From Escherichia coli O127:H6 str. E2348/69 (GTDB lineage: Bacteria; Pseudomonadota; Gammaproteobacteria; Enterobacterales; Enterobacteriaceae), in NCBI RefSeq assembly GCF_000026545.1, contig NC_011601.1: a DNA stretch of 64,000 nt. One strand, 5' to 3'. Made by a program: the position numbers. How positions within the stretch are numbered: position 1 is the stretch's first letter; every line of letters begins with the position of its first letter. This document shows, piece by piece, positions 21,001 to 24,000 of this stretch.

Positions 21001-24000
21001 TTGATGGAAAACGGATATCTACTAAAAAAAGAAATAATAAAACTACTTTCACTTTGATTTATTTGCTTTTTACTTTGGAAGTGATAATATGGACTGGATG
21101 GTGGCATCCATTCAGTCCATATTTCACAAAAACTACAGTGCTCTATCCTTGAAATACTAATCATTTCGCCTGCATATTCTTTTCAAAAAAATAATGAAAT
21201 ATCGTCCCCAGAACAGAACACATTCTGGGGAGAAAAAGAAAACAGCATAAAATAATACTTAAACTGTCACACCTGATAAAGAGTTTAATGTAGTATTCTC
21301 TGGAGGGTTCACACCTTCTGTAGACTGTACGCGACGTAACAAAGAAGAGAGCCCTCTTTCAGTTAAAAAGCCTTCCAGTGCAGTGCGAGGAAACCAGGTT
21401 GAAGACAGTGGCGTAATGTGTCTCTCATTTAATTTACTTTCCAGGGCCTTCGTAACGCCTCCATACAAAAAGCTAAATATCCTTGAGAAACATCCACTTT
21501 CCTGAGTTATCTTATTTACTTTGTACACATAATTATCTTTATCTTTAATGAAGCGGACAGCATAATCTTTTCCACGAAAATTGATAATTGAATAGTCATC
21601 AATGCCTGCAAAAACCCGGTGGTGACGCTGCTGCATGCGTGCTTTAAGTTGCAGTTCATCTACTATATCATCATTCGATATATGAAGAGTTCGGGTCAAC
21701 TTATTCCATGACGCATGGCTTGTCAAAGAAGTAGTGAATGTTATACCTGATAATGATGACGACATCATACACCTCCCTATATAACGCATTCCTGATTAAT
21801 CACATACTACGCTAATAGTAAAATAAAAATCTTCGTTGATTTTTATAATACTCCCGTATGCGATTGTGGTATTATTCCGTACTAACTGGCACCCACCAAA
21901 AAGATGATATCCCGTTGAATCGATAATGTCATCTTTTTGGACATTACGCAACATATGTATATCAATATGCACTGTGCCAATCACACAATAAATGCGATTC
22001 ATCACAGTCTCGCTGCTGATAGTACATAACGGATCTGCAGCCAGAACATCCGTGACAGATAAATTATTATCGCTCAGCTTTACGGTTGCCAAAGGGTTAT
22101 TAATAACAATCCAGCACCTTCTCTCTTGACTATCATCAACATGATAGAGTCTCAGACTATCACCAACTCTCAACTCTGTAACTGGATAATCAGTCCACCC
22201 AGGTACGATATAGCCATCAAAAAAAAGAGCATTAGAATGTGGAACAAATTGCCAATTATCATTAATCAGATGTTGTAAACTTTGTACCGTTGTTTCGAGT
22301 ATAATTACATTAAGTCTGTTTTCTCCATTATTATTTTCTATTACCGGATAAACATCTTTATTTAGCATCGTAAATTGAACATCATCAACTGACACATCAC
22401 CTTCCGGTAAGGCAGTCTGCATTACCCATAAGATCATGAGTTTTATCATATCTTCCGGTATCAGCCGGCTTTCACTATACGGGAATAACTCTTGGCACCA
22501 CTGAATGAACTGTTCTTCTGATATCCAGAAACGCCCCTCATAGCCCGAGTATGTCAACGTGAAACGAATACCATGACCGCTGACCTCACGAAAATATGCA
22601 TGGCAAGCATGACCTTCGGACGTAATATAGAGGCGACCGGTTCCGATAACTGGCAACAACGGCAAATAAAAATCGTTAATTTTCATATTCAATTGTGAAC
22701 TCAATGGCTTCATCAGGAAAGATTTCTTTTAACTTATCGAAAACATAGTCTTTTTTATGATATAAAAAAACATGATTTCTATTATTTTGGCTTATTTTAA
22801 TAGACAGATAAATGATTCCGTTACTACATTTAATTGTTAAAACAACTCCTCGTAATCTTCCACAAAGAATACTAAACGAGTGCTCCCCTTCTTCAAAGTA
22901 GCGTCGTCTTCGGCCCGAGGAGTAAAACAATCTCTTCCATAAAGAAGCCATTCGTATGAACAACGTATCAGGCGATCTTTTTTTTATATGATAAAAAATA
23001 TCATTAAAACTTTCTTCTCCTTGCGGCCAATCATCTGATGGCCGAAAAGAAACAGGCTCTATCAAATTTCTTTTTAGAGAAACTCTAGTCAAAGTAATGT
23101 TCCTTTATGGCAAAAGATAATTTTTCTACTGATTTATTAACATGTTGCAGATTCTCTTTTGTTCGTTTTTGTGAATCTAGCAATGAACGCTTTTCCTTCG
23201 AAAGTGAAGATTTTTTCTCATACAATCGCTGCTTTTGCTCATCAAATGCATTGTTTTTAATCTGATATTTATACAACGACACTTTATCCAAATTCACCAG
23301 CGATGCACAATACGCCTGCTTAGAGGCAATCGACTCTTTAATGGATTGCTCGCAGTCATCGAGTTTACCATCCACCTCTTTTATCTGAGAGTTAATCTTA
23401 GCCATTGATTCTCTCAATCGGTTCGCTCTGCTTTTACGAATAGATAAAATTCTGTCCAACATACTCAGGCAACCACTTTGAATAGGCTTTCAATCGTTTT
23501 TTCGTAACTACTGATATCTTTGGTGCTTTGTTGTATAAAGTTCTGAATTAATTTCCTATTTTTTATTGCCTTATCTGCTTCAGGATCTTGCCCCATCGTG
23601 TACTCACCAATACGAATAAGCAGCTCAACATTTTTATAAGTTGCAATAAGCTTTTTGCATTCTGCCGCCGCACGCAAATGCTCCGATGTAACAACGTTAT
23701 GCATAACACGACTGGCACTTAAACCAATATCAATTGCAGGGAAATGGTTTTCCTCTGCAAGTTCTCGGGTAAGTACGATGTGCCCATCAAGAATAGAGCG
23801 GACTTCATCGCCAATAGGATCATTAACATTATCGCTTTCTAACAACACCGTATAAATCGCGGTTATTGAACCTTTTGGCGCAGGCCCCGCTCGCTCTAAT
23901 AATTTGGGTAACGAAGAAAAAACACTCGGAGGGAATCCCCCCCTTACATCAGGCTCTCCCGATGCAAGCCCAACATCACGCGCGGCTCGGGCATAACGAG

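Follow-up and report, generated by a model that had tools for sequence, protein, structure and literature searches.

Stem-loops at 3' ends protect mRNAs that have been trimmed back after Rho-dependent termination, and overlapping bidirectional terminators were reportedly found between convergent Escherichia coli genes by Ju et al. in 2019. A further related element, sRNA350, is an RNA located downstream of cesF inside the LEE (locus of enterocyte effacement) of enterohemorrhagic E. coli (EHEC) O157:H7 strain 86-24, and is said to have been originally described by Gruber and Sperandio in 2015. According to reviews, sRNA350 is the Hfq-dependent 3' untranslated region (3'UTR) of cesF, uncleaved from the mRNA (PMC5030294, PMC5437115), and when overexpressed, it switches on ler together with the LEE operons. 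Here we describe the junction between cesF and espH in enteropathogenic E. coli (EPEC) O127:H6 strain E2348/69, analyzed in a window of 64,000 nucleotides (nt) of contig NC_011601.1 (window coordinate = NC_011601 coordinate minus 4,096,000; offset checked on cesF, escD, and espZ); the sequence matches that of E2348/69 with 100% identity. cesF is a separate transcription unit, and the convergent espH ends LEE3 (PMC5073101). The 201-nt gap between their stops (cesF, 21057; espH, 21259) corresponds exactly to the interval 21058 to 21258 given in a first-pass annotation, and it holds two hairpins, which we call hp1 and hp2 (Table 1).

We propose that the two hairpins face each other, each about 25 to 30 nt after the stop of the gene whose transcription would reach it first. 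hp1 would act on the cesF transcript as a pause site and a weak, leaky terminator; it would also be a barrier to 3'-to-5' exonucleases and so provide a stable end for a short cesF mRNA. hp2 would be the intrinsic terminator of LEE3. For this division of labor, we see belief and doubt in even balance. At most, hp1 stops transcription leakily, and it is no clean insulator. Terminator-like hairpins between convergent genes are nothing unusual, and Hfq dependence of the cesF 3'UTR was known before; a literature search turned up no account of the two E2348/69 hairpins as such. What is gained is the anatomy of the junction: it has two hairpins, RNA of both strands crosses it, and hp2, the putative terminator first encountered by LEE3 transcription, has decayed in E2348/69, the prototype EPEC strain. 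This is useful for LEE transcript mapping, for studies of the cesF 3'UTR (sRNA350), and for the design of clean cesF or espH deletions; the understanding of terminators or of the LEE is unchanged by it.

hp1 contains the imperfect palindrome that the first-pass annotation had taken for a hairpin between the two stops. Indeed, the quoted 32-mer is present in one copy in the window, at 21089 to 21120 on the plus strand, and none of 100 shuffles contained it. The hp1 arms of 16 nt each are 94% complementary and enclose a 6-nt loop, the sole non-Watson-Crick pair within them being G21097·T21112 (a G·U wobble in RNA). Four further pairs (21081-21084 with 21124-21127) lengthen the stem to 16 to 20 pairs. 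RNA folding, which had been suggested as a check, confirmed the hairpin on both strands: the 52-nt RNA folds with −29.4 kcal/mol on the plus strand (z = −7.9) and −24.6 kcal/mol on the minus strand (z = −6.7), and its folding energy was matched by none of 200 shuffles. Among 31,974 sliding 52-nt windows from both strands of the 64 kb, the plus-strand fold of hp1 ranked second in stability. Since hp1 starts 24 nt past the cesF stop, it lies inside the cesF 3'UTR.

Two genome surveys detected hp1 in 353 and 696 E. coli genomes, respectively, at a single site in each genome. A permissive Rfam scan of positions 19000 to 23000 returned noise only (E values of 0.3 to 10, scores far below the gathering thresholds). 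Being single copy and having no Rfam match above noise, hp1 is neither a repeat of the repetitive extragenic palindrome or bacterial interspersed mosaic element type nor a member of an Rfam family.

Like intrinsic (Rho-independent) terminators, hp1 combines a stable stem and a 6-nt loop with a position shortly after a stop codon, and its stem and loop are within the bounds set for this class (five or more pairs with G-C pairs among them, loop of 3 to 8 nt). To rank terminator-like structures, we used a d-score after the d'Aubenton-Carafa formula. In E2348/69, hp1 had the best d-scores of the cesF-espH gap on both strands, −11 (plus) and −26 (minus) compared to −53 to −60 for hp2. The d-score is a rough ranking only, because the 3'-end terminator hairpin of PasA with its U run scored −12; the trpA and rrnB T1 terminators scored +36 and +29, respectively.

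For comparison, the gap was collected from E. coli O111, O26/O121/O103, O157/O145 (including strain 86-24), and ML35-type atypical EPEC, and from Escherichia sp. MOD1, E. albertii, and several metagenome contigs; Citrobacter rodentium was absent from the set. A profile search of genome contigs with an EspH alignment revealed a single locus. It is hp2, missed in the first-pass annotation, and not hp1 that fits the intrinsic terminators in most lineages. The hp2 arms (21205-21213, TCCCCAGAA, and 21223-21231, TTCTGGGGA) lie 27 nt beyond the espH stop, where LEE3 polymerases reach them before hp1. A terminator scan flagged hp2 for O26 and the ML35 type (espH sense) and left it unflagged in the E2348/69 window. 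In five of seven LEE lineages (O26, O157, ML35 type, E. albertii, and a lineage designated L040), hp2 is a canonical espH-sense terminator, with d-scores of −2.7 to +24.5 and 5 to 7 U in the first eight tail positions. The corresponding values in E2348/69 and O111 are −56 to −60 and 3 to 4 U. In E2348/69, the stem is intact and is followed by ACGAUAUU, with U at three of eight positions; the tail of the O111 type is CGAUGUUU. In both, the proximal U-tract was lost through deletion. RNAalifold analysis of seven lineages independently predicted hp2 with 7 bp, and the stem shows one compensatory change, C-G to U-A, between clades. From this sequence comparison, we conclude that hp2 is the apparent ancestral LEE3 terminator, decayed in the E2348/69 lineage. 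Loss of the proximal U-tract in E2348/69 and the O111 type would let LEE3 transcripts leak through to hp1, and the minus-strand hp1 fold (−24.6 kcal/mol) may back-stop such leaked transcripts in the E2348/69 lineage. These two clades, in which the hp2 U-tract was lost, are exactly those in which hp1 is strongest.

In a comparison of ten lineages, the hp1 energy was −27.9 kcal/mol on the plus strand and −23.4 kcal/mol on the minus strand in E2348/69, −8.8 kcal/mol in O157, and −5.1 kcal/mol in E. albertii. Only the sequence CTGGATG...ATCCATTC and six or seven inner pairs are retained by all ten lineages. A 12-bp core of hp1 was predicted independently by RNAalifold over seven lineages. Within this core, the changes between GGAC/GTCC (E2348/69), GAAC/GTTC (O111), and GAGC/GCTC (O26) are compensatory, and a metagenome variant, L020, has GGAC/GTTC, a G·U intermediate between the E2348/69 and O111 forms. 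hp1 stays about 7 to 32 nt from the cesF stop and hp2 about 27 to 29 nt from the espH stop, with a spacer of 56 to 104 nt between them. Each hairpin thus keeps close to one stop, hp1 to that of cesF and hp2 to that of espH, a geometry that agrees with a cesF-sense hp1.

The strands were also compared. In the 12-bp core of eight lineages, 92 of 96 pairing cells are filled on the plus strand versus 81 of 96 on the minus strand, and the G·U pairs number 12 and 1, respectively. Furthermore, the plus strand gives the more stable fold in 8 of 10 lineages. Because the G·U pairs are valid in the cesF sense only, this asymmetry favors, without proving it, that hp1 works as RNA in the cesF transcript.

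RNA from the gap was evaluated using published Hfq data from RNA interaction by ligation and sequencing (RIL-seq), which were obtained with E2348/69 under a LEE-activating condition (PMC8550237 Table S3). RNA of both strands covers hp1, and plus-strand fragments also begin past it; these positions are RIL-seq fragment starts and not 3' ends. Minus-strand RNA passes hp2 and enters hp1, and it was not reported beyond hp1. Since RNA of either strand is present past its own hairpin, both hairpins are partly read through and the 3'UTRs overlap. A portion of the cesF transcripts would thus pass hp1 and, together with LEE3 transcripts leaking past hp2, create a 3'UTR overlap at roughly 21100 to 21190. 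The distal plus-strand reads might instead come from a weak promoter-like match at 21149 to 21178 (plus). The promoter scan found 7 promoter-like sites compared to 6.5 expected, and therefore no promoter claim was built on it. The literature search found no 3' ends from Term-seq or rapid amplification of cDNA ends (3' RACE) for the LEE.

Several observations weigh against hp1 as a leaky terminator and stabilizing 3' stem-loop of cesF. Unlike in intrinsic terminators, no U-tract (five or more U among 8 nt) follows the stem on either strand: in E2348/69, the full stem is followed by UCACAAAA and the GC core by AUAUUUCA, and the minus-strand tail is AUAUUAUC, the latter two with U at four of eight positions. 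Because just four of eight are U on either side, a consensus terminator scan left hp1 unflagged on both strands. The orthologous loci lack these terminator features as well. No U-tract is present 3' of hp1 in O26 (AUCCCCUC), O157 (ACAUACUC), or the ML35 type (ACACGCGC), and in E. albertii and O157, the stem has only −5 to −9 kcal/mol. Since the long stem is not universal, as the above values for these two lineages show, any strong-hairpin function of hp1 would be lineage specific. Covariation is thin, with two pairs double-changed in the 12-bp core across ten lineages, which was equaled by 56 of 500 shuffles. The strand bias comes down to approximately four to five independent G·U events versus one and is not significant alone. 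Moreover, cesF-sense fragments start at positions up to 21192, downstream of hp1, which means that not every cesF transcript is stopped there. Finally, the observations comprise the two structures, the way in which they are conserved, and gap RNA from either strand; the termination, the stabilization, and the Hfq role that we propose go one step beyond these.

The Hfq-bound cesF 3'UTR, known as sRNA350 in EHEC, contains hp1, and the EPEC cesF 3' region is likewise Hfq associated according to the published RIL-seq data. The U-rich start of this 3'UTR, immediately 5' of hp1, is a possible Hfq contact, to judge from the Hfq-bound fragments. As far as review descriptions of sRNA350 allow (PMC5030294, PMC5437115, PMC8565820), the likeness is one of place and core sequence. 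The inner CTGGATGG...ATCCATTC is common to E2348/69 and 86-24, while the flanks and the stem length differ, the 86-24 version being only a short hairpin (−8.8 versus −27.9 kcal/mol), and megablast aligns the cesF gene only. In 86-24, the hp1 counterpart follows cesF after 7 nt, and cesF is seven codons longer. The O157/O145 cesF (positions 396 to 779 of locus L007, O157:H7 86-24) has 127 codons compared to 120 in E2348/69, and its stop lies 7 nt before the hp1 remnant (780 to 810). The loop of this remnant holds a GATC (Dam) site, GGGATCATCC.

With its strong hairpin that has no U-tract and is followed by an untranslated stretch richer in C than in G, hp1 also resembles the stem-loops left by trimming after Rho-dependent termination. 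The spacer between hp1 and hp2 (21128 to 21204) contains 17 C and 6 G on the plus strand, and its C/G ratio is 1.2 to 3.6 in all lineages. This skew is no stronger than that of the adjacent coding sequence. A Rho-utilization site in the spacer was therefore rejected as a candidate: the skew is real, yet it does not exceed that of nearby sequence.

The candidate bidirectional terminator proposed in the first-pass annotation has a parallel in the overlapping bidirectional terminators of Wang, Ju, and Liu (bioRxiv 10.1101/2022.10.23.513370). Applied here, hp1 would be a stop shared by cesF and LEE3, at which the hairpin in the nascent RNA pauses the polymerase and collisions release the transcripts. 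As head-on and trailing polymerases would bring about release in this model, no strong U-tract is needed. hp1 is indeed a two-strand hairpin between convergent units, strong in both directions (−27.9 and −23.4 kcal/mol), with near-symmetric flanks (AAUAU/AUAUU), and in E2348/69 no other terminator-like structure between the two genes scores higher in either direction. The published class consists of hairpins unlike intrinsic terminators, which release 9 to 39% of the polymerases under one-way transcription; likewise, hp1 has no canonical U-tract and would leak if transcribed from one side. The minus-strand RNA that extends beyond hp2 into hp1 but is unreported past it, and the strength of hp1, together with these flanks, in exactly the two clades without an hp2 U-tract, are also in line with a shared stop. 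However, unlike in the published cases, a LEE3-specific hairpin stands between espH and hp1, so that LEE3 polymerases are served first by hp2, which is canonical in most lineages. Furthermore, the evolutionary signal favors one strand, the minus fold being weakened by the G·U positions, and the finding that hp1 is stronger where hp2 is weaker comes down to a single clade split. The plus-strand fragments that begin past hp1 count against it, too. They also bear on the suggested insulation of cesF from LEE3, for which hp1 is the best structure of the gap in both directions but a leaky one. Read-through, named at that time as the observation that would refute insulation, is thus partly seen, unless the weak internal promoter-like match explains these fragments. 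The bidirectional insulating terminator is thus supported in part: we consider the shared stop unlikely, and the bidirectional idea keeps real weight for the E2348/69 lineage.

Alternatively, hp1 could mainly be a regulatory RNA domain, either the structured core of sRNA350 or a docking site for Hfq or small RNAs, in which the invariant CUGGAUG...AUCCAUUC matters as sequence and not for stopping transcription. In favor of this, all ten lineages retain the inner sequence, including those whose long stem has decayed, and the 3'UTR is Hfq bound, forms chimeras with RyhB and gdhA 3'UTR RNA, and has an EHEC counterpart, sRNA350, that activates ler. The best predicted duplex with RyhB, at 21079 to 21106 (hp1 5' arm and flank), has −22.8 kcal/mol compared to −15.4 ± 2.7 kcal/mol for shuffles, 4 of 300 of which were as good, a marginal result. 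But this duplex is patchy and not conserved (−11.7 to −15.3 kcal/mol in other lineages), its site is buried inside a stem of −29 kcal/mol, and the compensatory changes in the outer stem indicate structure over sequence. We therefore regard the regulatory domain as improbable. A purely espH-sense hp1, serving as a second, tandem LEE3 terminator, would be reached by minus-strand RNA, and in the O26 type its minus-strand tail UAAUUUAU is richer in U than the plus-strand tail. Against this stand the weaker minus fold in 8 of 10 lineages, the conversion of the G·U pairs to A·C mismatches on that strand, and minus-strand d-scores that are poor in every lineage (−26 to −78), which together render it very improbable. 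Finally, the near-perfect inverted repeat with its conserved inner half-sites CTGGATGG/CCATTCAG could act as DNA, either by forming a cruciform or by serving a dimeric regulator as its operator, or could be due to chance. The G·T positions and the G·U intermediate fit RNA pairing and not an operator, both strands are transcribed, and the literature search found no report of regulator binding here; chance is excluded by the 32-mer shuffles, the fold z-scores, and the rank in the 64-kb window. Taken together, the DNA-level and chance explanations are hardly credible.

In a broader scheme, hp1 would be a collision-type bidirectional stop across which the cesF and LEE3 transcripts form overlapping antisense 3'UTRs, and its strength would have coevolved inversely with the hp2 U-tract. 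RyhB (cesF sense, 5' arm) and PasA (espH sense, 21142 to 21150) would dock beside hp1, tune the read-through, and thereby control how much of the long, ler-activating cesF 3'UTR (sRNA350) is present. If true, iron status and prophage RNAs would be linked to LEE expression; we rate this scheme as quite improbable. For PasA and the minus-strand gap, the duplex score was within the shuffle range (P = 0.13), as was that of the gdhA 3'UTR with the cesF 3'UTR (P = 0.11). On the minus strand, AAGGAUAGA (21150 to 21142) is perfectly complementary to UCUAUCCUU of PasA, a prophage small RNA, outside the seed proposed by the authors of the RIL-seq study.

Table 1. Features of the cesF-espH junction in E2348/69 (window coordinates)
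Feature	Position	Strand	Basis
hp1 (reported palindrome): arms 21086-21101 / 21108-21123, loop 21102-21107, extension 21081-21084 / 21124-21127	21081..21127	+	Inverted-repeat search, RNA folding
hp2, candidate espH/LEE3 terminator hairpin (UCCCCAGAA, 9-nt loop, UUCUGGGGA)	21205..21231	-	Inverted-repeat search, folding, terminator scan in relatives
Eroded U-rich hp2 tail (CGAUAUUUCAUUAUUUUUUU on - strand)	21185..21204	-	Sequence; tail U counts
U-rich start of cesF 3'UTR (UUUAUUUGCUUUUUACUUUGGAA), immediately 5' of hp1; possible Hfq contact	21058..21080	+	Sequence; Hfq-bound cesF.EST3UTR starts 21044-21096
hp1-hp2 spacer, RNA from both strands	21128..21204	.	RIL-seq starts 21001-21192 (+), 21102-21193 (-)
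cesF coding sequence, 120-aa chaperone	20695..21057	+	Open reading frame and RefSeq annotation; NC_011601 4116695-4117057 in RIL-seq annotation file (GFF)
espH coding sequence, last LEE3 gene	21259..21765	-	Open reading frame and RefSeq annotation; open frame reaches 21789
cesF.EST3UTR::gdhA.EST3UTR chimera, 44 fragments	RNA1 starts 21044-21096	+	PMC8550237
cesF::ryhB chimera, 180 fragments	RNA1 starts 21001-21192	+	PMC8550237
espH.cesF.IGR::pasA chimera, 105 fragments	RNA1 starts 21102-21193	-	PMC8550237

A long-range helix, 21064-21076 with 21235-21247, was predicted to enclose the gap and both hairpins. It is present in the separate minimum-energy folds of the E2348/69, O26, and O157 RNAs, and in columns 17 to 20 with 216 to 219 of alignment A4, UUUG/...AA is replaced by CCUG/CAGG. 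Because a U-rich run pairs with an A-rich run, the register and the significance of this helix are doubtful. A small open reading frame of 32 codons with a TTG start (21054 to 21152) was dismissed, as it is absent from other lineages.

The surrounding gene order is map (19809 to 20420, minus), cesF (plus), espH (minus), and sepQ/escQ (21796 to 22713, minus). The espH open frame contains eight further codons upstream of the RefSeq start (21766 to 21789, minus; MRYIGRCM-MSSSLSG...), and the annotated start is common to other lineages. In the chicken isolate Z1323CEC0017 (L012, 674 to 1165), an in-frame deletion of eight residues (LRRVQSTE) is located near the EspH C terminus. In an E. albertii-type metagenome contig (L038, 27 to 527), the map gene call is shortened to 166 residues versus 203. 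Other very stable hairpins of the window are located at 23921 to 23972 (minus), 19385 to 19436 (plus), 41569 to 41620 (minus), and 46269 to 46320 (minus); the third is a perfect 17-bp stem, and the last is the most stable fold of the window.

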